DNA of 39,798 nt from assembly GCA_016185805.1 (NCBI GenBank), contig JACPMW010000003.1:1-39798 (forward strand), given 5' to 3'. Below are positions 1,469 to 14,387 of the stretch, piece after piece; the stretch's first letter is position 1; each line of letters opens with the position of its first letter. Under the pieces are notes generated by a model that was not told the origin of the DNA, did no database searches, and worked only from the letters and a program-made list of their open reading frames with translations. A program made the position numbers and the translations under genes. This stretch comes from Candidatus Woesearchaeota archaeon. Lineage in GTDB: Archaea; Nanobdellota; Nanobdellia; Woesearchaeales; GW2011-AR4.

Positions 1469-2308
1469 CTACATTATTTGCAGGCTGTCTATCGGGCTTT
1501 TTGTGCCAATCATTTTGGGAGATGCAATATGAAGATATACCATTGTTGTTTCTGCGCTGCTGTGCCCGAGCAATGACTGGACTTCTGCAACGCTGCTTCC
1601 GTTCTCTATAAGGTGGGTTGAAAAGCTGTGCCGCAAAGTGTGCGGATGGGCATGCTTGGATAATTTGGCATGTTTCCGTGCATTTTTTATTACGGATCTT
1701 ACGGACGCTGTTGTAAGGTGGCCATTAAATCCCCTGAAAATATAAGAATCAGGTGACGTGCATTCTTTTGAAATGTATGAAGCTAGCTCTTCCTTGATGC
1801 TCTCTGCTATGACAAACATCCTGTCCTTGTTGCCCTTGCCGTGCCTCACCCACCCATAGCCATTTTTGATGTCAAGATTTTCCGGCTTAAGGTGAACAAG
1901 CTCGCTTACCCTTAGCCCGGCAGAATACATCAGCTTTGCCATAAGCTTGTGCTTAGGATTGCTTATTGAATTTATCAGCCTTGCAATTTCTTCTTTGGTT
2001 AAAACTATTGGCAGTGATTTAGGGGTTTTTGAGTATCTTATATTGACCATTAACCGCCGGTTTAAGACACTGCCATAAAAAAACTTCAATGCGTTTAAGT
2101 TCACATTAATTGTGTTGCCGCATGTGCCTTTCCCAATCATGATGTCAAGGTAGGACTTGACATCGGCTTTCTTGATTTCATTTGGCTCTTTTTTGCACCA
2201 ATTGAAGAATTTTCTGACGCAATACCTGTAAGTCCTTATTGTTTTGTGGCTTAATCCCCTTCTGAGCCCTTCTTTCCTTATTAATTCCGGAATGTCCATT
2301 TTAATCAC
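1469..2308 (-). CDS. xerA: Xer-type tyrosine site-specific recombinase
   Basis: 279 aa with the full R-K-H-R-H-Y catalytic set (GLRVSE, HGKGNKDR, HTLRHSF, LGHSS, MVYLH). There are 59 residues between KDR and HTLRH. The start is GTG 2308 or ATG 2299. Confidence 0.8.
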   Translation of the reverse strand: MIKMDIPELIRKEGLRRGLSHKTIRTYRYCVRKFFNWCKKEPNEIKKADVKSYLDIMIGKGTCGNTINVNLNALKFFYGSVLNRRLMVNIRYSKTPKSLPIVLTKEEIARLINSISNPKHKLMAKLMYSAGLRVSELVHLKPENLDIKNGYGWVRHGKGNKDRMFVIAESIKEELASYISKECTSPDSYIFRGFNGHLTTASVRSVIKNARKHAKLSKHAHPHTLRHSFSTHLIENGSSVAEVQSLLGHSSAETTMVYLHIASPKMIGTKSPIDSLQIM

Positions 2309-2506: not shown

Positions 2507-2810
2507 ACCGTTATAAGCCACCTTATCATCGATAACCTCCTCAAAATTTCTCGATGAAAATTCTAAAAACCATCAAAGCTTTTTAGAACTAAAGATTTTT
2601 TCAGGCAAAAAAATCGCATAAAATTATCAACAGTTATGATTATCTTAGAAAATATTAAATAGTTCTAATGTTTTTATTATAATTTATGTGGAGATTAGGC
2701 TTATAGCCCTTATAGCTTGCCTTACTCCATTGGTTCTCCATAAGTTCTTTGAATTTATGGTGAACATGAAAATGGAAACAAAAATCATTACAGCTGGAGT
2801 GACCCTGGCC

Positions 2811-2898
2811 GTGGAGACTCTGATGTAGTGAGGCAGCAATAATCTATAAGTTGAAATTCACGGTCAAGGGTTTGGGGGTTCAAATCCCCCTCTCCACT
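2811..2898 (+). tRNA. tRNA-like gene or pseudo-tRNA, class-II-like, best fold gives anticodon CUA
   Basis: Perfect 7-bp acceptor (GTGGAGA / TCTCCAC) and a canonical T-arm (GGGGG-TTCAAAT-CCCCC). The long variable region can form a 6-bp stem (AAATTC / GGGTTT). The anticodon stem CAATA/AGTTG has one A-A mismatch, its loop is ATCTATA, there is no nt 26 and the D-stem is weak. Confidence 0.35.
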
Positions 2899-2984
2899 CT
2901 TTGTAGAATGTAAATTGTTGATAATTTTCTGTTTTCTTCGAGAAATCAAGGGATAAATCCGAAAATGCTAATTGTTACTGCCTT

Positions 2985-3051
2985 CGTTTAACGCCATAAA
3001 GAAAAACTAAAGACGACAAAATTGAAAACTTTGTCTAACAAGCGTTAAACG
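2985..3051 (+). repeat. Junction J0: 10-bp inverted repeat enclosing a bulged hairpin and core site TGTCTAA|CAAGCG|TTAAACG (3032-3051)
   Basis: CGTTTAACGC (2985-2994) pairs with GCGTTAAACG (3042-3051). The inner stem is AGAC(GAC)AAA / TTTGTCT. The core matches the J1-J5 pattern. Confidence 0.55.
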
Positions 3052-3143
3052 GTTCGCTTACGCTCTCCCAAATTTTTGATTACTTTGAACGGGGGGGTTT
3101 CTAGAAAACTTTATAATCTTGCTTATAAGCACTATAGGTCAAT

Positions 3144-4718
3144 ATGGTAAATTGTGCAAAATGTGGAGAGAAAATAGGATTATTTCAAAAAAAATATGAT
3201 TATGAGAATAAGCACGGAAATACTATAAAGTATTGCTCAAAATGTAATGAAGAATATAAAAAACAAGAAGCTGAAACGAAACGAAAGAAAATCGAAAAAC
3301 AAAAATTAGAAGAGCAAAAAGCACAGGAAAAATATTCACAGGAAATTTCTGAGATTTGTAAAAAATATTTAACAACTAAAGATTATGATTTCAGAGGAAT
3401 AATCTCGGGAATATACAAAAATAAAGAATTATATGGGCTAGTTGAGAAGGAAGATATAGATTTCTTAAAACAACAGTTTATAAAATTGTATCAAAAAACT
3501 CAAGAAAGTTCTCCTTCAAGTTCTAAGGAATATGACGAAGTGATGTCTTTAGAGAACACCTATAATAATGCCTTGCAATTTATTCAGGACTTAGAAAAGG
3601 TTAAGAAAATATCAGAAAAAAAAGGAATTAAATCAGACTATATCAAAATAATCAAACTCATGGCAGATATTGTGAATGAAGATGAGAAAAAAAGGAGGGA
3701 AAAAATTGCAGTTGCTGCGTACCAACGGATTTCTAAAATTACGAGTGATAAAAAACAAATAATTAAGGAATTTCTCAAAATCCTCCAACCGGAAGATGAA
3801 ATGACTATTGAATTTTTATTTGATAAATTTGGGCTTTCTTACACTCATGAGGAAGTAACGAAACTACTAACAGAATGTATTGAAGACGCAGAAATTGAAG
3901 ATTTTGAAGAAAATATTGGTACAACACAAAAAAAACAAATAGGGGATTTTGAAAATCTTAGTGGACATCAATTTGAAAATTACCTAAAAGAAATTTTCTC
4001 TATTTTTGGCTATCAGGTTATTAGAACAAAACTAAGTGGCGACCAAGGGGCAGATTTAATTATAAAGAAGAACAACGAAAAAACCGTTGTTCAAGCAAAA
4101 AAGTATTCTGGTGATGTAACTAATAAAGCCGTCCAAGAAGTTGTTGCATCAAAAGAGCATTATGGTGCAAATAAAGCAATGGTTGTAACTACTGGAAATT
4201 TTACTAAAAGTGCCATTGAATTAGCAAGAAGCAATAAGGTTGAGCTTTGGGATAAAAATAAACTTAAGAATGTAGTATCGGAAATTAATAGTTCTTTGGG
4301 CACGAAGAAGGGATCACATACTCAAACCATGAGTTTAGACAGGGATTTTTTAGACAAGGATTCATTCCCAATAGTTTGTCCCTTATGCAGTTCAGAAATT
4401 GGAGATTCTTTAGATGGTTGCCCTAGAAAAAATGAAGTTCAAGAACTGTGTTGTCTTAAATGTACGGGTAGACTGACAATAAGTCTACCAGAAGAAGCTT
4501 ATTCTTGTCTAGGTTGCAAGCAAACATTTGACACAGTTAAAGAAAGGATTGAGCACTCAAAGTCATGCAAAAAACTGAAAGAAAGAGAGTTTAAATGCAA
4601 GTCCTGCCAAAAAGAATTTACTTTGGATGACTCGGAGTTTACTGAACTAAAAATAAAAGGAAAAATAAATATTGAATGCCCAAAATGTAAAAAAGACAAC
4701 TCTGTAGGTATTAAGTAA
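3144..4718 (+). CDS. Multidomain protein: N-terminal zinc ribbon, coiled coil, Mrr-like restriction-endonuclease catalytic domain, C-terminal cluster of zinc ribbons and C2H2-like fingers
   Basis: N-terminus has CAKCG...CSKCN. The Mrr-cat-like block reads GHQFENYLKEIFSIFGYQV...GDQGADLII...VVQAKKY...AMVVTTGNFTKSA. The C-terminus has CPLCS, CLKC, CLGCKQTFDTVKERIEHSKSC, CKSC and CPKC. Confidence 0.6.
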   Translation: MVNCAKCGEKIGLFQKKYDYENKHGNTIKYCSKCNEEYKKQEAETKRKKIEKQKLEEQKAQEKYSQEISEICKKYLTTKDYDFRGIISGIYKNKELYGLVEKEDIDFLKQQFIKLYQKTQESSPSSSKEYDEVMSLENTYNNALQFIQDLEKVKKISEKKGIKSDYIKIIKLMADIVNEDEKKRREKIAVAAYQRISKITSDKKQIIKEFLKILQPEDEMTIEFLFDKFGLSYTHEEVTKLLTECIEDAEIEDFEENIGTTQKKQIGDFENLSGHQFENYLKEIFSIFGYQVIRTKLSGDQGADLIIKKNNEKTVVQAKKYSGDVTNKAVQEVVASKEHYGANKAMVVTTGNFTKSAIELARSNKVELWDKNKLKNVVSEINSSLGTKKGSHTQTMSLDRDFLDKDSFPIVCPLCSSEIGDSLDGCPRKNEVQELCCLKCTGRLTISLPEEAYSCLGCKQTFDTVKERIEHSKSCKKLKEREFKCKSCQKEFTLDDSEFTELKIKGKINIECPKCKKDNSVGIK

Positions 4719-4736
4719 ATATGAAACTTATTAAAC

Positions 4737-5216
4737 ATGGACGAAAATCAAGAAAAAGCAAATAAAATTTTATGGGAATACCTACATCAAAATAAAAAAC
4801 CTATCAAATTAGATAGTAATGCAATGAAAATATTGGATATTGCTGAGAGTAATCATGAATATTATGAGTATATTCCTGATAAACTTTTTAGTTTATTACT
4901 TGAAAAAGATATAAAAATTGAAAAATTAGATTCGGAATTTAAACACTTATTCGAAAAAGAGCGAAAGTCAAATTATATTTCTGGATGGAAATCTATCTTA
5001 ATTCAAAAAGAAGTACATGCTAAGTTTCTAATAGCTCAATTTATCCATGAATACGCGCATCATAAATTTAAGATTGGTGAATGGAATAAAGATAATTATA
5101 AGCATCCTAAAACTCCTGGTGAGAGTAAAGAAGAGGATACTTGTAACATATTGAGTTGTGAATACGCTGAAATGAATGGATTTGGTAAGGAATATTCTAA
5201 ATTGATAGGACTTTAG
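4737..5216 (+). CDS. Hypothetical protein with HExxH motif (possible ImmA/IrrE-like zinc peptidase)
   Basis: 159 aa. FIHEYAHHKF contains HEYAH. It starts 19 nt after the Mrr-like gene on the same strand. Confidence 0.3.
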   Translation: MDENQEKANKILWEYLHQNKKPIKLDSNAMKILDIAESNHEYYEYIPDKLFSLLLEKDIKIEKLDSEFKHLFEKERKSNYISGWKSILIQKEVHAKFLIAQFIHEYAHHKFKIGEWNKDNYKHPKTPGESKEEDTCNILSCEYAEMNGFGKEYSKLIGL

Positions 5217-5394
5217 AGATAACTTATTTTTCTTAATGTAATGCTTCGCTCATTTGATAAAATGGAACTCCCCCAGTCCTGCGGACATATACTCTGCTTA
5301 CGCAGAAATCTATTATAACTAAAGTAATCAAAAACTACGGCAGTAACGCATTTTCGGTGGCTTAAAAACACCGCTCGGCATCAAAGCCTCGCTA

Positions 5395-5414
5395 CGTATA
5401 ACAAGAATTAAAAT
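5395..5414 (+). repeat. Junction core J1: CGTATAA|CAAGAA|TTAAAAT
   Basis: Read directly. It is preceded by stems CTGCG/CGCAG (5279-5305) and CGGTG/CACCG (5355-5373). Confidence 0.55.
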
Positions 5415-5444
5415 CAATTGAGAAAAATCCCCCTATTGCCCACA

Positions 5445-6020
5445 CTACTTAATACTTCTTAAGATATTTAATAGAATTTCTCCAACCTTAACATAATCAA
5501 TCATTCCACTTCTTGACATCTTTACACCGTGTACTGCTTTATTTCGAACTTTAGAGAGATAATCACTCATAGCTCTAATACTAATTAGTTTTTCACCATC
5601 CACCTTTTTCTTTTTCAATAATCTCTGTAATTCATTCTCAATCAAGAATGATAATTTAATTATGGAGTAATTGTAATCTTTAAAATTCAATTGATTATCT
5701 AATTCTTTCTTTATCTTTTCTTCATTAATTTTAAGTTTTTTTACTTTTGATTTATATTTAGATAATTGGTTCTTTAGTTCTTCTATTTCTTTTCTCCTTC
5801 TTTTCATTGCCCTACCATATAAAGAGAATTGCATGGCAAGAATTAATCCTAACATAACGGGGATAATTATCTCAAAAATTGACGTTGCTGGCATTACAAA
5901 CTCAATCTTTTTATCAAAAAGAAAAACAAAAATTAAAATGGAGTAAATTATTATAGTTATAGGTAGTACTATGATTAAAAATTCTTTCTTTTTCATTATA
6001 AATCTTGGGAAGGAAATCAT
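5445..6020 (-). CDS. Membrane-anchored coiled-coil protein with a C-terminal region resembling DUF4145 (RNKAVHG)
   Basis: 191 aa with two or three N-terminal hydrophobic helices and a K/E-rich coiled coil. The C-terminus reads LSKVRNKAVHG. Confidence 0.35.
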   Translation of the reverse strand: MISFPRFIMKKKEFLIIVLPITIIIYSILIFVFLFDKKIEFVMPATSIFEIIIPVMLGLILAMQFSLYGRAMKRRRKEIEELKNQLSKYKSKVKKLKINEEKIKKELDNQLNFKDYNYSIIKLSFLIENELQRLLKKKKVDGEKLISIRAMSDYLSKVRNKAVHGVKMSRSGMIDYVKVGEILLNILRSIK

Positions 6021-6223
6021 TGTTCTCCTCCCCCTTCAAATTGTTCCATTTTTTTGCCTGCTTCAATCCCTCCTAATCCAATAATTGTTGAATAGATTAT
6101 GAAATAAAACATTTCTGGTAAGGTTTCATGCATTACAAGAGCGACAGCTTGAAGTATAACGAAACAGACAACGGTGATTCCAATAATCCATGCTGAGGCT
6201 GATGAACTTATGTATGGTGCCAT
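6017..6223 (-). CDS. Small two-TM membrane protein, translationally coupled to the downstream gene
   Basis: 68 aa and hydrophobic. Its stop overlaps the next start (ATGA at 6017-6020 on the minus strand). Confidence 0.4.
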   Translation of the reverse strand: MAPYISSSASAWIIGITVVCFVILQAVALVMHETLPEMFYFIIYSTIIGLGGIEAGKKMEQFEGGGEQ

Positions 6224-6295
6224 TTATAAACTAAATATTTAATGTTCTATATAAATATGTTGGATGTGGGCTTATGTAGGGGATTTTTCTCAACT

Positions 6296-6354
6296 CTGCG
6301 GACGCAGGTTTCCAGAACTTTGTAACTGGAAACGATTTTAACAAGGGTTATACG
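6296..6354 (+). repeat. Junction J2: palindrome, 8-bp hairpin and core ATTTTAA|CAAGGG|TTATACG (6335-6354)
   Basis: Palindrome CTGCG-GA-CGCAG at 6296-6307. Hairpin GTTTCCAG-AACTTTGTAA-CTGGAAAC at 6308-6333. Confidence 0.6.
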
Positions 6355-6415
6355 CAATTTTTGCGAACGCCTAAACGAGATAGGGCTTTGGCATTAGCGA
6401 TTAAGAATATAGAAG

Positions 6416-6802
6416 TCAGTGAACTCTCTCTTCTAATAAACGTTGAGATATTTCTCCTGGTGCTTGGTAATAAAGAGTCACTTGAGTACTCACAAAAACG
6501 TCTGTCCTCTTTATGCGAACACCATTATCAAATTCTGTTGTGGTATCCTTAACTGGAATAGGGAAACCTTGACTGGGAGTTGGTTGTCGTTTTGTGTATC
6601 CTGTGATTCTACAACCAATTGGGTAAATAGTATAATCACCTTCTCCACCATGTATAAACAATTTCGCTTTGTCTGGCACTATACCAGTTAGTTCTATACC
6701 TTCTATAAGCTCTGTAATCTCCTTGAACTCACGCATAGATTGTCCTACATCAACTACCCTCCTTACAAAAGGGACGCTTTCAGTTACTCTAATGGTATTC
6801 AT
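6416..6802 (-). CDS. Hypothetical protein (cassette 3 cargo)
   Basis: 128-aa ORF with no recognisable motif. It is flanked by two perfect 14-bp inverted repeat pairs. Confidence 0.4.
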   Translation of the reverse strand: MNTIRVTESVPFVRRVVDVGQSMREFKEITELIEGIELTGIVPDKAKLFIHGGEGDYTIYPIGCRITGYTKRQPTPSQGFPIPVKDTTTEFDNGVRIKRTDVFVSTQVTLYYQAPGEISQRLLEERVH

Positions 6803-6952
6803 TTGTTGTTCAAGATATAGAACAAAGAAGTGTTTATAAAATTATGCCAAAGCCCTAGAATATTGTCTTGATGTATCGCTTCGCTCTTTTGATAGACGGC
6901 GTTCGCAAAAACTTTGCTTTGCAACCCCATTGCATTCTCCTTTCAGTCGGGG

Positions 6953-6972
6953 CGTATAACAGGAATTAAATG
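6953..6972 (+). repeat. Junction core J3: CGTATAA|CAGGAA|TTAAATG
   Basis: Read directly. It is preceded by small stems TTGC/GCAA and CCCC/GGGG (6925-6952). Confidence 0.55.
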
Positions 6973-7034
6973 CAATTAAATTTAAGTTTCCAATGATAGG
7001 GGAATTCTCTCTGATTTGTAAATAGCTAACAAAA

Positions 7035-7592
7035 ATGGAAAGAGTTATTAATAAAGAAATTAATATTAAGGAATTAATGAATAAAATTAAAAACAATTTA
7101 ATGTATTTAGGCTTTGCTTTTTTTGTTAGTTATGCTGCTGCATCCCCACAATTGGTGTATCCGGGTGGTGAAATCATAAGCAATTTTTATTTTGTTTTTG
7201 TTATAATATTTATTTTTTCTTTTTTAGCTATAAGATTTATTATTTTAAATAAAGACCTACCAATAGGACAAAATAAAATCTTAAAAATTACTTCTGCCAC
7301 ATCTTTTGTTTTTACATTATTTTTTATTTATCTCACTTATACTGAAAATACAAGCATACACATCCTAATAGGAACAAAAAATTTAGGCAACATAAATGGA
7401 TTTTACATATTAGCAACATTCATTTTAATTATAATGATTCATATTATCTTAAATTTACAAAAACACATCAAATTATCCAAAATTTTACCGTGTCTATACC
7501 CTTACTTCAAAATGTTTGGTTTGTCTATCATATTACTATTTATTAATATAATAGTATACACAATACTATCGTTTAGTATTTATTGTTGTTAA
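7035..7592 (+). CDS. Polytopic membrane protein (cassette 4 cargo)
   Basis: 185 aa, very AT-rich, with about five hydrophobic helices. Confidence 0.45.
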   Translation: MERVINKEINIKELMNKIKNNLMYLGFAFFVSYAAASPQLVYPGGEIISNFYFVFVIIFIFSFLAIRFIILNKDLPIGQNKILKITSATSFVFTLFFIYLTYTENTSIHILIGTKNLGNINGFYILATFILIIMIHIILNLQKHIKLSKILPCLYPYFKMFGLSIILLFINIIVYTILSFSIYCC

Positions 7593-7676
7593 TACTCCTA
7601 GATTAACTATCTAAAATATCACAAGAATTTTATAAACAGCAAAATTTATAAACTAGCACCCCCATAATCCAATATT

Positions 7677-7826
7677 ATGAAAACAGTAACCATATCAGAA
7701 TTAGAATACAAAACCCTGAAAAAGAAAGCTGAGTTGGATGAAGACTTATTAATGAAACTAATAAGGGGTCTGGAAGATATAAAAGCAGGAAGAATAAAGC
7801 CTTGGAAAAGCAAGTTTACCGATTAA
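7677..7826 (+). CDS. Small ORF (49 aa), possible antitoxin partner of the RelE-like gene
   Basis: Translation: MKTVTISELEYKTLKKKAELDEDLLMKLIRGLEDIKAGRIKPWKSKFTD. It is not in the ORF track (under 60 aa). It converges on the toxin gene with an 11-nt 3' overlap. Confidence 0.35.
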   Translation: MKTVTISELEYKTLKKKAELDEDLLMKLIRGLEDIKAGRIKPWKSKFTD

Positions 7827-8127
7827 GTTTTTTTCTTATTTCTTCCTTGTAATAAGGCATTAAGAGCTTTATTTTGTCAATTGCTTTCTGCTGGTCTTTT
7901 TTGCCGCTTATTGCAACAACAAACACAACTACATATTCATCATAAATCAAATAATAAAAGCGGTAATTTCTTACTTTCTTCTCCCTCAAAAATTTATAGC
8001 CTAGTGGCTTGCCAACATGAGGATTTGATTCTAACTGCTTAATTTCATTGTCAATCATTCTTTGAATAGAAGTGTCTAACTTTTCAAAATCTTTATCAAA
8101 TTCCTCAGTTGTAAATATCCTAAACAT
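7816..8127 (-). CDS. RelE/ParE-family toxin
   Basis: The pattern FRIFTTEEFDKDFEKL...IKQLESNPHVGKPLGYKFLREKKVRNYRFYYLIYDEYVVVFVVAISGKKD is typical of RelE/ParE. The ATG at 8127 is preferred over the track's TTG at 8145. Confidence 0.7.
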   Translation of the reverse strand: MFRIFTTEEFDKDFEKLDTSIQRMIDNEIKQLESNPHVGKPLGYKFLREKKVRNYRFYYLIYDEYVVVFVVAISGKKDQQKAIDKIKLLMPYYKEEIRKKLNR

Positions 8128-8249
8128 AAAAACAATAACAACCAATGCCTATTTAAACATTTGTTTTGAATTATATAATTGACTAAGAGAGAATTCCCTA
8201 AACTATAGTCTCGCTACGCTCGAATTTATTGGGAAACTTAAATTTAACT

Positions 8250-8309
8250 TTGCGGAACGCAACTTTTGAGAACTTCGTAGCTCAAAAGGCATTTAACAAG
8301 GGTTAAACT
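8250..8309 (+). repeat. Junction J4: palindrome, 8-bp hairpin and core CATTTAA|CAAGGG|TTAAACT (8290-8309)
   Basis: Palindrome TTGCG-GAA-CGCAA at 8250-8262. Hairpin CTTTTGAG-AACTTCGTAG-CTCAAAAG at 8263-8288. Confidence 0.6.
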
Positions 8310-8451
8310 CAATAATTTTTAGTGGCTAAACATAGATAGGGGGACATTTCTAACGACTAAAAAGAACTGTGGGTTTGAAATGAAAGTGAAAAACATCTGA
8401 TTGAAAACTAGAAAAATATTTAAAGTTGTTAAATCTAATAATAGCGAGATT

Positions 8452-9762
8452 ATGAAAAAAGAGGCATTAATCACTTTAATAATATTTTTTGCTATTTTCA
8501 TTTCTGGCTGCGGCTCTGGGCCGGGTGCCTTGCCTGCAGCACTGTCAGGGAAGGATTATTCTTATGATATACCTGCTCCATCTGGAGGCAAAGGGCCATT
8601 CAGTTGTGTTGCAACGCCTGATTCAGTGATTCCAACAGGCCTTAGTTTCAATGGATGCACTTTAACTGGAACTGCTCCAACACTTTTAGGAGTATCTGAG
8701 AAAGTATTTTCCTTTAAGTTCTCTATTACGGGTGCTGATGGAAAGTCCTATGGGCCTTTTGATGCTACACTGCCGGTTAGTGTAGGCCCTCCTGAATTTT
8801 TACCACCAGAATTGCCAGAAGCTGGTGTTGGCCAGGCGTATTCATTCAGTTTCTGCGATAATCCTACCGCATTAGATTGTGTAAGCAGTTCTTCAATTTC
8901 AGGCGGCGCTGGCGCTCCTTATACTTTCTCTGCTACTGGCCTGCCGCTGGGGATTTTCCTCAGCCCTAATGGGGAGTTAAGCGGAAAGATACCAGAAGAG
9001 GCGCAAGAAGGAGACAAAACATTCAATGTATGTGTGATAGACTCGGCACGTGTTGAAGACTGCAAGGATGTTAAGCTTAACATGAAGAAAAATGTTGCAC
9101 TGGGATACAAATTAAGCCTGAAATCAAGATTAGACTATAGTGGCGAAGTGGTTAACTTTAATTTTTGCGGCGGGTCTGCTAGGGAAAAGGGATCACTAAC
9201 GTGGGAAATCGATAATGTTGTAACACTTACACAGCCATATGCAGGAGGCTATTTCACTTCAGATGAATATGATGCAAAGGTAGATGAGTACGGCTACACC
9301 AGTGCAGATAATTTTAGGCATTTGCAAGTGCCTGTGAAAGCATCTGGCAGCGCTTCAACTTCACATGATTTCTGCGGTCGCAGCCAAATTGAATGCAAGG
9401 CAGATTCTTTCAGCGCTAGTTATGACCTTAAAATCCCAATAGAACTTAAATTAGACGAGTCGGGGCTTAGTGTATATATTGACTATGCGTATATCAAAGA
9501 TAATCCTGATCTTGAAGCAGGAGATATATCCAAACTGAATTGCGATAGTCCAGGTGCTTCAGAGTACATCCTTAAAAAAATGGCAATAGGATCACCTTTT
9601 GTCCGCGAGGGCGGTTATAGAAAGGCAGTTTTCGATACCAATGGTGGCACACTGACAGGGCAATACGAAGATAACAACCCTTACACTTATGCTTTTGGCG
9701 CAGCTCCAGGAAGAACATCAAGGCAACTGGCATGGTCGCTAACCGTGGAGCGGGTTAAGTAA
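8452..9762 (+). CDS. Secreted lipoprotein with putative Ig-like repeats (cassette 5 cargo)
   Basis: The ATG at 8452 gives MKKEALITLIIFFAIFISGCGSG, a signal peptide with a lipobox Cys. Repeated motifs PTGLSFNGCTLTGTAP and GLPLGIFLSPNGELSGKIP follow. The track start at 8401 is a TTG. Confidence 0.6.
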   Translation: MKKEALITLIIFFAIFISGCGSGPGALPAALSGKDYSYDIPAPSGGKGPFSCVATPDSVIPTGLSFNGCTLTGTAPTLLGVSEKVFSFKFSITGADGKSYGPFDATLPVSVGPPEFLPPELPEAGVGQAYSFSFCDNPTALDCVSSSSISGGAGAPYTFSATGLPLGIFLSPNGELSGKIPEEAQEGDKTFNVCVIDSARVEDCKDVKLNMKKNVALGYKLSLKSRLDYSGEVVNFNFCGGSAREKGSLTWEIDNVVTLTQPYAGGYFTSDEYDAKVDEYGYTSADNFRHLQVPVKASGSASTSHDFCGRSQIECKADSFSASYDLKIPIELKLDESGLSVYIDYAYIKDNPDLEAGDISKLNCDSPGASEYILKKMAIGSPFVREGGYRKAVFDTNGGTLTGQYEDNNPYTYAFGAAPGRTSRQLAWSLTVERVK

Positions 9763-9991
9763 GCACTGGCAGATTTTTAATTCTCAACATAATGTTTATA
9801 TAAACACCTTTTTTCTCTTTCTATATTTACAACAGAAGCTCGCCAGGAATTGAAAAAGCAGGGATAGCAAATGGACAAACACCCGCCCCCTACAACTAAC
9901 TAACGACTAAATTACGAAATGTTCCCCTTGATACTTGTTCTTTATTGCTCACCTTGTTCGCCTGATTGAACACGAGCCACTAAAAATTACT

Positions 9992-10050
9992 TTGCGGACG
10001 CAATTTTCCCACACTTGCGTATGGGAAAAGGATTTAACAGGAATTAAAAT
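9992..10050 (+). repeat. Junction J5: palindrome, 8-bp hairpin and core GATTTAA|CAGGAA|TTAAAAT (10031-10050)
   Basis: Palindrome TTGCG-GA-CGCAA at 9992-10003. Hairpin TTTTCCCA-CACTTGCGTA-TGGGAAAA at 10004-10029. The right side AATTAAAATCAATT is identical to J1. Confidence 0.6.
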
Positions 10051-10061
10051 CAATTTTCTAC

Positions 10062-10475
10062 TTATTGCTTCGGAGGCTCAATACCGAGCTGTTTCCACAA
10101 GCTTAAATTGTCCTCAATGCCCCAGCGCTCGATTATTTTGTTGTTTTTAATGCGTATGATGTCCATCACTGACATGGAAATCTTTTTCCCCGTTGGACTA
10201 ATTCCCATAAATTCCCCTTTCTGCGTGCCGCTAAACACGAATCTGGTTGCGACCTTGTCATTTTCGGCAATCATGTCCTCGATTTTTATCCTGGCATCCG
10301 GGAATGTTTTTCGTAATTCTTTAAAAGAATTCCTTATTTCATCAATTCCTGCCTCTTTTCCGTAAAAGCTGCGGTCGACAAAGTTTTCATCAAAAATTTC
10401 ATCTATAGCGGACAAATTGCCCTTGTTAAATACCTCCTCATAAAAGCGATGCATCAGTTCCTTATTCTTTTCCAT
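10062..10475 (-). CDS. SnoaL-like (ester/polyketide cyclase fold) protein
   Basis: 137 aa. N-terminus reads NKELMHRFYEEVFNKGNLSAIDEIFDENFVD and the C-terminus reads IIERWGIEDNLSLWKQLG. Confidence 0.65.
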   Translation of the reverse strand: MEKNKELMHRFYEEVFNKGNLSAIDEIFDENFVDRSFYGKEAGIDEIRNSFKELRKTFPDARIKIEDMIAENDKVATRFVFSGTQKGEFMGISPTGKKISMSVMDIIRIKNNKIIERWGIEDNLSLWKQLGIEPPKQ

Positions 10476-11881: not shown

Positions 11882-11895
11882 TTTTAATAAAAAAA

Positions 11896-12002
11896 TGGAC
11901 CGGCCGAGACTTGCAATGCGAAGCGCTGCCCGCTTTCCGCAATTTGAACTCGGAGCCTCACCCATGCCATGGGCGCATTATGCCAGGTTTAACTACCGGC
12001 CC
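11896..12002 (-). tRNA. tRNA-Ala(GGC) with a 33-nt intron at the T-loop/T-stem boundary
   Basis: Minus-strand read: GGGCCGG-TA-GTTA-AACCTGGCA-TAAT-G-CGCCC-ATGGCAT-GGGTG-AGGCT-CCGAG-TTCAAAT-[33 nt]-CTCGG-CCGGTCC-A. The G3:U70 pair is present. The intron is about 11941-11909. Confidence 0.85.
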
Positions 12003-12320: not shown

Positions 12321-12536
12321 TTAATTCTTTGCAGCGAGCTTTACATCCCCCTCATGTATCGTCTTTCTTCCTGCGTGCTTTGATATATCTGCCGCTTTCT
12401 TGGAGATCTTTAATGCAATGTCTGTCAATACTTCGGCAAAAGCATCAACTCCATCCTGTGAAACTCTTTTAGCCCCTGCCTTGACAAGGATTCTTGCGAC
12501 AGATGCCTTGGGTATTGTAGAAGTTTTTCTTCCCAT
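12321..12536 (-). CDS. Archaeal histone (HMf-like histone fold)
   Basis: 71 aa. Blocks PKASVARILVKAGAKRVSQDGVDAFAEVL and HAGRKTIHEGDVKLA. Confidence 0.85.
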   Translation of the reverse strand: MGRKTSTIPKASVARILVKAGAKRVSQDGVDAFAEVLTDIALKISKKAADISKHAGRKTIHEGDVKLAAKN

Positions 12537-12579
12537 CGAAAATCACGATTTTCGGGGTTTCGGAAATCTTTGATTTCCG
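12537..12579. promoter_or_regulatory. Two related 8-bp-arm palindromes immediately upstream of the histone start codon
   Basis: CGAAAATC-AC-GATTTTCG at 12537-12554 and CGGAAATC-TTT-GATTTCCG at 12561-12579. Confidence 0.4.
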
Positions 12580-12701
12580 CAACCATAAATCCCCATTAAT
12601 TAAGATATAAGGGAGAAAATTCAAGAAGAACCCCTTAGTCTTTGTGTATCCCTGAAACCTAACATAAGTTATTTAAATAACTTTCGATTTTAGGAATTTT
12701 C

Positions 12702-14387
12702 ATGGATGAGCTTCTCAAAACCGCTATAAAGAAGTATGCCCTGCAGAATGCTGTAAGATACAAGGGCAAGGCCAATCCTGGCGCGGTCATAGGCAAGGTA
12801 CTGGCTGAGAACCCTAGATTGAGGGAAAATGCAAAGGAGATAAGCAGTGAAGCCTTAAAGGTGGTGAAAGAAATCAACAAGCTGCCTTTGGAGAAGCAGG
12901 AGAAAAAGCTTCAGGAATTGGCTCCAGAACTGCTGGAAAAGAAGGAAAAGGCAGAAAAAGACATCTTTGAGTTCCTTAACATAAGGGAAGGGCAAAAAGT
13001 CATAACAGCATTTCCACCAGAGCCGAGCAAATATCCCCACATTGGGCATGCAAAAGCAATTATTGTTAACTATGAGCTTGCAAAGCGCCATAACGGCACA
13101 TTCTATCTTAGATTTGAAGACACAAACCCGGAGCTGGCTGATGATGAATTCTATAGGATTCATCTTGACAACTACAAATGGCTGGGGATAGTTCCGGATA
13201 AGATTGACTATGCATCGGACTTCATGGAAGAGTTCTACAGATACGCTGAGAAGATTATCAATGAAAACCACGCTTATGTGTGCAGCTGCAAGCAGGAAAC
13301 TATCAAGGAAAACAGGAAAAATGGCACAGAATGCGAGCACAGGTACAGGCAGCCTGATAAAAATCTTGAGCTTTGGCAGCAGATGCCCAAGGCAAAAGCC
13401 GGAAAATATGTATTGAGGCTGAAGGGCCATATGCAAAGCCCCAACTCCACATTAAGGGACCCTGTCATCTTCAGGGTTGTTGATGAAAGCCACCCCAGAA
13501 AAAAGAAAAAGTACAGGCTCTGGCCAAATTATGACTTTGAAAGCGCGATAATGGATGGGATTGAGGGCATAACTCACAGATTGAGAAGCAAGGAATTCGA
13601 GCTTAGAAATGAGCTGCAGAGGCTCATACAAACGATGGCTGGATTTCCTGAAACCAATATTTACGAGTTTGCAAGGTTCAATCTTGAAGGCGTTGAAAGC
13701 TCTGGAAGGGTTATAAGGGAAAAAATGCAAAAAAAACAATTAATTGGGTGGGATGACCCATCATTGACGACAATAGTTGCGCTAAGAAGAAGGGGTTTTT
13801 TACCACAGGCAATAAAGGAATTCGTGCTTTCAACAGGATTGACAAAAACAGAGTCTGTATTGACTTGGGATGACTTGATAGTACACAATAGAAGGTTATT
13901 GGATGCAAAATGCAACAGGTATTTTTTTGTTGAAAATCCAAAGGAAATAAAGATAGAAAATGCGCCTGAACAATCTTGTGAATTGAAATTGCATCCTGAG
14001 TTCAAAGACAGGGGGGCAAGAAAATTCAAGACAAAAGACAGGTTCTATGTAGCTGAAAAGGATTTAAAGGAATTCAAGGAAGGCAAATTAATTAGATTGA
14101 TGGACTGCCTGAATTTTGCCAGGAAAAAAGGCAAGTTTGTTTTTGACTCTTTAGAATACGACAAATACAAAAAGCATGGCGACAAGATAATACATTGGCT
14201 GCCTGTGCAGAAAGGTTTAGTTAAAGTAGAAGTTTTGATGCCAGACAAGAAGACTGCAAAAGGATTGGCTGAGCCATTAGTGAAAAACTTGAAAGTTGGT
14301 GATATTGTCCAGTTCACAAGGTTTGGTTTTTGCAAACTGGACAGCAAAAAAGTTGATAAGCTGGTGTTTTGGTACACGCATGGTTAA
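12702..14387 (+). CDS. gltX: Glutamyl-tRNA synthetase, archaeal/eukaryal type
   Basis: 561 aa. The N-terminus KYALQNAVRYKGKANPGAVIGKVL is typical of archaeal GluRS. It has the HIGH motif PHIGHAKA, FYLRFEDTNP and LRSKEF. Confidence 0.9.
   Translation: MDELLKTAIKKYALQNAVRYKGKANPGAVIGKVLAENPRLRENAKEISSEALKVVKEINKLPLEKQEKKLQELAPELLEKKEKAEKDIFEFLNIREGQKVITAFPPEPSKYPHIGHAKAIIVNYELAKRHNGTFYLRFEDTNPELADDEFYRIHLDNYKWLGIVPDKIDYASDFMEEFYRYAEKIINENHAYVCSCKQETIKENRKNGTECEHRYRQPDKNLELWQQMPKAKAGKYVLRLKGHMQSPNSTLRDPVIFRVVDESHPRKKKKYRLWPNYDFESAIMDGIEGITHRLRSKEFELRNELQRLIQTMAGFPETNIYEFARFNLEGVESSGRVIREKMQKKQLIGWDDPSLTTIVALRRRGFLPQAIKEFVLSTGLTKTESVLTWDDLIVHNRRLLDAKCNRYFFVENPKEIKIENAPEQSCELKLHPEFKDRGARKFKTKDRFYVAEKDLKEFKEGKLIRLMDCLNFARKKGKFVFDSLEYDKYKKHGDKIIHWLPVQKGLVKVEVLMPDKKTAKGLAEPLVKNLKVGDIVQFTRFGFCKLDSKKVDKLVFWYTHG

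Follow-up and report, generated by a model that had tools for sequence, protein, structure and literature searches.

Recombinase gene and cassette array

The stretch of DNA analysed here, 39,798 nt of a Woesearchaeota contig (hereafter the window), carries a gene for a XerA-like tyrosine recombinase and, divergent from it, an array of small gene cassettes, each of which is bounded by its own inverted repeats. The repeats are probably the two halves of a palindromic recombination site that belongs to each cassette and is crossed at its centre, in an array akin to those of integrons and of integrative mobile elements exploiting Xer (IMEX). Positions 2800–10400 were read in detail and compared with related loci encoding homologues of the window recombinase (labelled L001, L080 and so on), all sequence data being taken from metagenome assemblies.

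The recombinase gene (xerA, 1469–2308, minus strand) encodes a protein of 279 aa, from whose conserved adjacency to the array we infer that it catalyses cassette recombination. The protein matched Pfam Phage_integrase (1e-39) together with a SAM-like N-terminal domain, and consists only of a SAM-like core-binding and a catalytic domain, without an arm-binding domain, as in the Xer family. It scored 218.8 bits against the NCBIfam archaeal XerA model (cutoff 220, hence 1.2 bits under) and 189 bits, in two pieces, against the integron-integrase model TIGR02249 (cutoff 265), and its closest solved structures were those of XerA (5hxy and 4a8e). When it was aligned to VchIntIA (2a3v), residues 181–231 of the latter fell on a 5-residue stretch of the query (179–185) and 49 residues had no counterpart; the IntI-specific insertion, the additional domain around patch III, is thus absent from the window recombinase. 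Homologues are plentiful in Woesearchaeota and Nanoarchaeota, where xerA has core genes as neighbours, ftsZ, ribosomal protein genes and secY among them. In L080, xerA lies beside ftsZ, and genes for a histone and a class-I aminoacyl-tRNA synthetase (Pfam tRNA-synt_1c) follow 7–9 kb downstream. In the window, ORFs of 71 and 561 aa, the same sizes as that pair, occupy 12321–14387, beyond the array upstream of xerA. If these ORFs, matched by size alone, are the L080 genes, the block of xerA and array would have been rearranged or inverted between the lineages. Between 50 and 70 nt upstream of the xerA start stands GTCCAGTGTCCAGTGGTTATTTAC (2354–2377), a tandem octamer followed by a half-core-like word, which is kept in the distant relatives L001, L080 and L088 and might serve the recombinase promoter as a regulatory element or as a binding site for XerA.

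The array begins on the plus strand at a primary site, J0 (2470–2519, attI/dif-like), where a hairpin (TATAACCCTAAA, 2473–2484, and TTTAGGTTATA, 2495–2505) is followed after 4 nt by the first right half-core (GTTATAAGC, 2510–2518). Conserved sequence ends here, the alignment with L001 diverging directly after GTTATA. The J0 hairpin plus RTTA-N5-AAT was found in 14 relatives, and every related locus whose upstream sequence reaches about 1 kb or more shows J0 and then an array of cores with side hairpins. J0 lies about 200 nt upstream of xerA, and farther out in some loci (L003–L005, L007).

Beyond J0, six cores of the form TAACARGVRTTA (TAAC-N4-RTTA) start at 3036, 5399, 6339, 6957, 8294 and 10035, all on the plus strand, and delimit the cassettes. 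If the 3′ end of a cassette is joined to its own 5′ end, the repeats become part of one larger palindrome. From the crossover outward this consists of 9-nt core arms, complementary between the ends of the same cassette; two side hairpins restricted to the 3′ side (one of TTGCGGACGCAA type followed by a variable one of 8 bp); an outer stem of 13–16 bp; and, in part of the cassettes, an inner stem separated from the outer one by a bulge with the strand-specific word GCTWCGC. In cassette 3 the core arms read GCGTATAAC and GTTATACGC, and the predicted joint of the circle is ...CAGTCGGGGCGTATAACAGGA|TTATACGCAATTTTTGCGAACGCC.

The first unit (2519–3044) is atypical in that it ends at a core without side hairpins (3036–3047, TAAC-AAGC-GTTA), and its status as a cassette is uncertain; it contains a 13-nt perfect inverted repeat (2620–2632/2916–2928). 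Cassette 1 (3045–5407), opened by the right core arm GTTAAACGG (3044–3052), encodes a Mrr-type restriction endonuclease and a 159-aa ORF. Its stem is formed by 3073–3086 and 5321–5334, its core arms (3044–3052/5394–5402) match at 7/9 positions and its side hairpins (5355–5373, 5377–5388) are atypical. The next core (5399–5410, TAAC-AAGA-ATTA) leads into cassette 2 (5408–6347), with two minus-strand ORFs, one of them weakly HEPN-like, a stem at 5418–5432/6279–6293, core arms matching at 8/9 positions (5407–5415/6334–6342), hairpin 1 at 6294–6307 and hairpin 2 at 6308–6333. Cassette 3 (6348–6965), between the cores at 6339–6350 (TAAC-AAGG-GTTA) and 6957–6968 (TAAC-AGGA-ATTA), holds a 128-aa minus-strand ORF, an outer (6358–6371/6898–6911) and an inner stem (6381–6394/6844–6857), fully matching core arms (9/9, 6347–6355/6952–6960) and hairpins at 6914–6924 and 6925–6952. 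A membrane ORF and a ParE-type toxin with a small upstream ORF make up cassette 4 (6966–8302), which has an outer stem at 6976–6991/8232–8247, an inner stem at 6997–7012/8186–8200, core arms matching at 8/9 positions (6965–6973/8289–8297) and hairpins at 8250–8262 and 8263–8288, and ends at the core 8294–8305 (TAAC-AAGG-GTTA). Cassette 5 (8303–10043) encodes a He_PIG Ig-domain protein; its outer stem lies at 8313–8327/9975–9989, its inner stem at 8338–8350/9916–9928, its core arms at 8302–8310/10030–10038 (7/9 match) and its hairpins at 9992–10003 and 10004–10029. The last recognisable core is 10035–10046 (TAAC-AGGA-ATTA), and the sequence to its right, from a SnoaL gene onward, has no partner repeat. 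Across the arrays compared, the cargo consists of typical accessory genes (restriction enzyme, ParE and HicAB toxin systems, methyltransferases, glyoxalase), and of the longest ORFs per cassette, 17 are directed away from xerA and 23 towards it.

Inverted repeats of the window

Eight repeat pairs had been listed in a preliminary description of the window, and exact-match scanning recovered every one of them at its coordinates; the output of a generic inverted-repeat tool was dominated by AT-rich pairs of low identity. The pair of cassette 1, both pairs of cassette 3, the outer pair of cassette 4 and the pair 8315–8327/9975–9987 of cassette 5 are perfect (14, 14, 14, 16 and 13 nt), and the other three carry exactly the single indel or mismatch noted earlier. 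Two pairs lengthen to perfect repeats of 15 nt, namely those of cassette 2 (to 5418–5432/6279–6293) and cassette 5 (to 8313–8327/9975–9989).

The 7.0-kb array holds six perfect inverted repeats that reach 14 nt or more and have their arms within 3 kb of each other, the remaining 29.3 kb holds none, and the same count in first-order Markov simulations of the array averaged 0.29 with a maximum of 3 (300 runs). On both grounds the repeats are real, local and no generic trait of terminators or promoters. Comparable pairs around ordinary housekeeping genes had been named as the finding that would speak for such a trait; the housekeeping genes in the rest of the window have no such flanking pairs.

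The geometry is about as it had been described, the left arm beginning 7–9 nt past the 12-nt core (25 nt in cassette 1) and the right arm ending 45–47 nt ahead of the next core (64 nt in cassette 1). The pairing had been placed just inside the cores, but the complementarity takes in the 9-nt core arms themselves. That each pair is private to its cassette is true within one array; across genomes, the end type of cassette 5 recurs with unrelated cargo. The TAGGG(G) element attributed to all inner repeats is present in those of cassettes 3–5, whereas in cassette 2 it lies in the only stem and in opposite polarity, and a G-run/C-run stem of this kind occurs in only about 13–15 of the 46 cassettes of the comparative set described below.

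A word of the TCGCTWCGCTC type was found at 3056, 5243, 5296, 5389, 6876 and 8211, in keeping with the recurrence reported earlier. C/T-rich CG words (GCTTCGC, TCGCTACG, CACTTCGT) are enriched solely on the plus strand of the array, in the 150 nt before the cores. Across arrays their density is 6.2/kb on the plus strand of the 3′ modules, 0 on the minus strand and 0.28/kb in the cassette bodies, which suggests a strand- or direction-specific accessory signal.

Folding of reconstituted joints

The cassette joints, 92–99 nt in length, were folded as single-stranded DNA, and those of cassettes 2–5 gave a four-way, cloverleaf-like structure in which the outer stem closes hairpin 1, hairpin 2 and the core hairpin. 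Folding energies ranged from −21 to −30 kcal/mol with z-scores of −5.1 to −9.2 (cassette 2, −8.1 at −30.5 kcal/mol; cassette 3, −5.1; cassette 4, −9.2 at −29.6 kcal/mol; cassette 5, −6.2), and 0/200 shuffles folded as well. Array junctions in the integrated state had z-scores of +0.8 to −3.2 and no fold beyond the two side hairpins. The folding of the reconstituted joints thus bore out the earlier proposal that, once a cassette is circularised, its repeat pair would close off a region of the size of attC with the hairpins and the core inside.

Pairing constraint across arrays

The comparative set comprised 46 non-redundant cassettes from 16 arrays whose XerA proteins are 46–94% identical to that of the window. 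Junctions were located with regular expressions, which overlooked some sites (for example in L088) and thereby diluted the signal from cognate ends, meaning both ends of one cassette.

The longest perfect inverted repeat had a median of 13.5 nt between cognate ends versus 7 nt between non-cognate ends, and a perfect repeat of at least 11 nt was present in 34/46 cognate versus 37/2070 non-cognate pairs. The distal 5 nt of the core arms were fully complementary in 27/46 cognate and 54/2070 non-cognate pairs. Cognate joints folded at −39.0 kcal/mol with 29 long-range pairs, as against −25.9 kcal/mol (p = 1e-17) and 8 long-range pairs for non-cognate chimeras. In an alignment of the core hairpin, built from opposite cassette ends, 86% of the cells were paired (68% in shuffles), 57 cells were changed on both sides (23 in shuffles), five pairs showing two-sided changes, and the covariation score was 0.47 (0.14 in shuffles). 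None of these three values was reached by any of 500 shuffles.

Judged from these alignments, pairing that is kept while the sequence is free to vary, with compensatory changes in the core arms, amounts to an evolutionary constraint. That stems without sequence conservation stay complementary points to recognition of an intra-strand fold rather than of a sequence. The conserved words of the core are TWTAAC and RTTAWA, within arms of 9 paired nt, and the spacer between them measures 3–4 nt (5–6 counting C and R), its length varying within single arrays. A spacer of either 3 or 4 nt in one array would be easy for a hairpin loop to accommodate and awkward for a fixed duplex site.

Cassette mobility and crossover

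Genomes sharing an identical XerA were found to differ by entire cassettes, with breakpoints exactly at the cores. L081 and L082, which encode the same XerA protein as L080, have one extra cassette of 346 bp at J0; the flanks of the three loci are 99.98–100% identical and overlap by a 13-bp duplicated half-core (TTAAATGCAATT). Between J0 and an internal core, L088 and L089 hold different cassettes (8.0 kb versus 0.65 kb); on either side of this interval the two are 100% identical. J0 is the breakpoint of insertion or replacement in both comparisons. L094 and L096 also diverge at a core. In this small sample no inversions were seen between near-identical arrays, only same-strand, co-linear insertion and replacement. 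At the distal L088/L089 breakpoint, about 8210–8240 upstream in L088, lies a junction with a 12-nt spacer (TAAC-AGCGACCGCGAT-GTTA), which may be the scar of an imprecise event.

The breakpoints put the crossover inside TAAC-spacer-RTTA. In L080/L081 the purine ahead of TTA stays with the upstream side, and in the family of cassettes sharing the ends of cassette 5 the downstream spacer AAGG-A recurs with four right-hand neighbours (L113, L117, L136, L008), while the upstream spacers are very diverse. Both examples point to exchange at R|TTA, comparable to G|TT in integrons. Since L094/L096 disagree with them, the crossover can be placed within the core spacer region and no more closely. The spacers of recombining partners are non-homologous (TACT versus AGCG in L080/L081).

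Site families

A protein search of the ORFs of the window cassettes against the other arrays gave no hits, and this null result led to the finding that end modules, not genes, are shared. The modules of cassette 5, of which the 5′ one spans about 60 nt and the 3′ one about 110 nt, recur in L003, L008, L094, L096 and 36 metagenome contigs. In at least 10 contexts they enclose cargo of 1.2–3.6 kb that varies in length, in its genes and in their orientation, with no similarity at the protein level. The outer stem is constant in this family, and four variants of the core arm (GAACT, TCATT, GAAAC, GGACT) are each matched at both ends. Some units have no ORF and consist, over 97–132 bp, only of a foldback site between two cores (in reverse-complemented upstream sequence, L003 4849–4950; L008 150–251 and 547–653; L094 1241–1338 and 1346–1478). 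They may be ‘empty’ cassettes and possibly the raw material for the attachment of cargo. Given the shared modules with unrelated cargo and the units without ORFs, the repeats define types of site, like attC families, and not genes. A search of viral contigs with a 17-nt word of the module returned six hits, which were rejected as chance matches in unrelated sequence without an adjoining core.

Recombination model and alternative explanations

Comparison between genomes demonstrates the architecture of the array, the region of crossover, the constraint on pairing and the gain, loss and replacement of cassettes. In the proposed mechanism, the array would be built by site-specific recombination at J0, upstream of xerA. 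In a cassette free as a circle, the site would be an uninterrupted imperfect palindrome of about 100–230 nt, centred on a dif-like or ‘simple-site’-like core (arm ...TWTAAC, spacer of 3–4 nt, arm RTTAWA...). Recombination with J0, or with any junction, would cross over in the core spacer, which is the centre or tip of the palindrome, and such a crossover would split the palindrome so that its left half closed the integrated cassette (3′ end) and its right half opened it (5′ end). Every junction of the array would then be a hybrid of two cassettes, and stem sequences would be free to differ between cassettes provided that the two halves of each were kept complementary. The substrate recognised would be an intra-strand fold, formed either in single-stranded DNA or in an extruded cruciform, and the model likewise supposes that cassette circles exist.

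Several points weigh against this model. The XerA of the window looks like a conserved housekeeping recombinase, so its adjacency could merely mean that the array sits at a xerA/dif module. The joint of cassette 1 folds weakly (z −1.4), and this cassette and the preceding unit fit poorly; 12/46 predicted cassettes have no perfect repeat of at least 11 nt, possibly because of missed junctions. The side on which the spacer is exchanged is not uniform: it goes with the upstream cassette in L080/L081 and the cassette-5 family, and with the downstream one in L094/L096. No circular joint was recovered, a search of metagenome contigs for an unsplit (circular or attP-like) cassette-5 module giving 0 hits. 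Better folding of the bottom strand, which appeared in 39/46 cassettes and was considered as a strand preference, rests almost wholly on the position R = A; outside it, C.A/A.C (7) and G.T/T.G (6) mismatches are balanced, and the preference was discarded. Finally, a purely double-stranded Xer reaction would work without long stems.

Such a reaction is the basis of an explanation that we regard as unlikely yet worth weighing, in which ordinary double-stranded, Xer-exploiting elements have been piled up at a chromosomal dif beside xerA. Only the 22-bp core would matter, and the palindromes would serve accessory-factor binding, pausing or cassette insulation, or would be tolerated by-products. 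The recombinase is Xer-like and the core has the layout of dif, its inverted arms enclosing about 6 bp when C and R are included in the spacer; both xerA/dif modules and archaeal dif sites with flanking inverted repeats have been described (PMC5357621, PMC2958812), and tandem IMEX arrays at dif are known in bacteria (PMC5357621). Against it, stems that have no conserved sequence stay complementary through compensatory changes, which is the signature of pairing and not of duplex recognition, spacers of 3 and 4 nt occur in a single array, and the non-homologous spacers of recombining partners (TACT, AGCG) argue against standard two-strand exchange with branch migration. A tentative extension of the proposed mechanism goes further, and we hold it to be possible without expecting it: the array would belong to a system of gene capture, not described before, that DPANN archaea operate with their housekeeping XerA, an ‘inside-out integron’ in which the cargo lies inside the palindromic site, at the place taken in an integron attC by the variable terminal structure, the cassettes move as folded single strands and exchange takes place at the hairpin tip. 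It would stand between Xer/dif systems and integrons and could show what an ancestral attC looked like. A fold in the integrated state can also be imagined, although we think it very improbable. Here a single-stranded cassette would snap back and pair its own core arms, the half-cores of its neighbours would form a second helix, and two unpaired spacers would remain, giving the order of R box, unpaired spacer and L box seen in attC, with the cargo as terminal loop and a complete pseudo-dif site. A XerA dimer would cut and swap both spacer strands in the manner of a hairpin-telomere resolvase, freeing a single-stranded circle. By our own reasoning, the order coreL(N-1)-spacer-coreR(N)...coreL(N)-spacer-coreR(N+1) mirrors R″-spacer-L″...L′-spacer-R′ of attC (layout in PMC8946536). 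Both cleavage points deduced for the bottom strand lie 3′ of an arm, as is usual for tyrosine recombinases, and under this fold the upstream cassette should take the spacer with it, which is what L080/L081 and the cassette-5 family show. That rule is contradicted by L094/L096, a strand swap by two subunits is not known for Xer proteins, bridging up to 4.5 kb of single strand would be demanding, and the scheme is wholly inferential.

The two readings already raised in the preliminary description, RNA processing stems and invertible segments, fared poorly. Gene-flanking inverted repeats form processing stems in archaeal rRNA operons, and the close flanking of ORFs by the repeats would suit transcripts whose ends pair for processing, stability or circularisation. 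We give this hardly any credence: the complementarity begins exactly at the DNA crossover point, co-varies with it and extends over the core arms, ORFs occur in both orientations (17 versus 23), ORF-less cassettes of 97–132 bp retain the structure, and side hairpins and motifs are fixed relative to the array and not to the gene. Invertible segments, or transposons of the kind of miniature inverted-repeat transposable elements (MITE) with terminal inverted repeats, would account for each unit being flanked by inverted repeats, and seem the least credible possibility, close to negligible. The cores all have one orientation, the 3′ side is invariably the one with hairpins 1 and 2, and in the small sample of genomes sharing an identical XerA no inversions were seen. 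Target sites are not duplicated, as the left and right spacers are the same in only 7/46 cassettes; the window has no transposase gene, and because the repeats of neighbouring units differ, no single transposase could read them.

Comparison with integrons and Xer-exploiting elements

The arrangement resembles an integron in many respects. A tyrosine recombinase gene diverges from an array of small accessory-gene cassettes with the primary site on the integrase-proximal side (J0 lies 200 nt upstream of the gene), and the newest variation is found at this recombinase-proximal site. Sites are set by an imperfect palindrome or structure, their words resemble RYYYAAC and GTTRRRY, and the crossover is at or beside R|TTA, as it is at G|TT. 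Site types are common to unrelated genes, and the cargo includes toxin-antitoxin and defence functions. The differences concern the recombinase, which has no IntI-specific insertion of about 45 residues and scores as XerA, and above all the site. The words resembling R″ and R′ stand 3–4 nt apart at the tip of the fold, whereas in attC they are at its base; the palindrome is split by integration so that its halves flank the cargo, whereas attC is self-contained at the 3′ end of the cassette; the crossover is at the centre of the palindrome and not, as in attC, at the 3′ edge or one end; and the site is larger (100–230 nt) and four-way branched. As the ORFs point either way, there is no common promoter logic, unlike in integrons, whose cassette ORFs are mostly co-oriented and transcribed from one shared promoter. 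With the IntI-specific domain absent, the site split and ORF orientation mixed, the system is not a canonical integron. Published archaeal integrons are described as canonical, with an IntI that has the extra domain and attC sites that fold as in bacteria (Ghaly et al. 2022, PMC9668308).

Xer/dif systems and IMEX (CTX-phi, VGJ-phi, TLC-phi and GGI; xerS/difSL and xerH/difH; archaeal XerA/dif) share with the array a recombinase of the Xer family, inverted arms around a short spacer and elements stacked in tandem. Site and recombinase gene are neighbours, which is also the case for difSL/xerS and for part of the archaeal xerA/dif modules, and a folded single-strand site with an unpaired central region would recall CTX-phi. 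An intra-strand fold is the substrate or an intermediate both in integron attC (PMC8946536) and in the CTX-phi attachment site (PMC5357621), and archaeal XerA has been reported to bind stem-loops of unrelated att sites, less tightly than dif (PMC8371274). The non-homologous partner spacers imply exchange of one strand, as in Xer-exploiting elements. A standard dif has arms of about 11 bp around a 6-bp centre, compared with arms of 9 paired nt and a spacer of 3–4 (or 5–6) nt here. Unlike IMEX, the units mostly range from less than 1 kb to a few kb, hold only cargo or no ORF and have no phage or plasmid functions; each has a long palindrome, and many different units are combined in one array. 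No IMEX-type element of this kind in archaea was reported in the literature searched.

The pdif modules of Acinetobacter are likewise small accessory-gene modules bounded by Xer sites and shuffled among replicons. Their sites are inverted, whereas here all cores are direct and the inverted repeats are non-conserved flanks; the junctions identified in the relatives all lie on one strand, most arrays having been searched in a single orientation. In mycoplasma Xer-like phase-variation loci and in shufflons, a recombinase gene stands beside genes that each have a short site, and inversion between inverted sites switches expression. The present array differs from these in its direct repeats and in varying by gain, loss and replacement of cassettes. 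We found no published description of a split-palindrome cassette design, nor of Xer-linked archaeal cassette arrays with split palindromic sites, in a literature search whose coverage excluded most subscription journals.

The locus bears on two questions, the origin of integrons from Xer-like recombinases and the way in which attC sites become attached to genes. A Xer-type enzyme is combined here with a dif-like core, a structural constraint like that on attC, families of site modules with unrelated cargo and ‘site-only’ units without ORFs, and the locus would therefore offer a natural intermediate that can be tested at the bench. For DPANN archaea, with their very small genomes, such arrays would provide a further way of gaining and losing genes, and they differ between genomes whose flanks agree at 100%. 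Since the IntI-specific domain and the self-contained attC of canonical integrons are absent, searches built on these features would probably miss these defence and toxin cassettes.

Additional features of the window

Scans of the window with Rfam at the gathering threshold and with ARAGORN at default settings returned no matches. With introns allowed, ARAGORN called a tRNA-Ser(UGA) gene with a 121-nt intron at 2688–2899 on the plus strand, inside the atypical first unit and flanked by the 13-nt inverted repeat of that unit; a tRNA gene within a cassette-like unit would be unusual. At a lowered threshold it also called a tRNA-Phe with a 114-nt intron at 775–960 on the minus strand. GC skew and gene orientation around the array were considered as a clue to an origin or terminus and reflected merely coding-strand bias.

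The sequence at 11882–12000 is 98% identical to L001 and forms the distal conserved edge of the variable region in both genomes; it has a tRNA-like look and was called by no tool. Inside the SnoaL gene, inverted copies of two junction words occur 30 nt apart (10377–10389 and 10420–10431), one corresponding to the 13 nt directly left of the core at 3036 and the other to the 12 nt of the core J4, where they code for DENFV and FNKG. They are probably due to chance, although two matches within 55 nt are unexpected.

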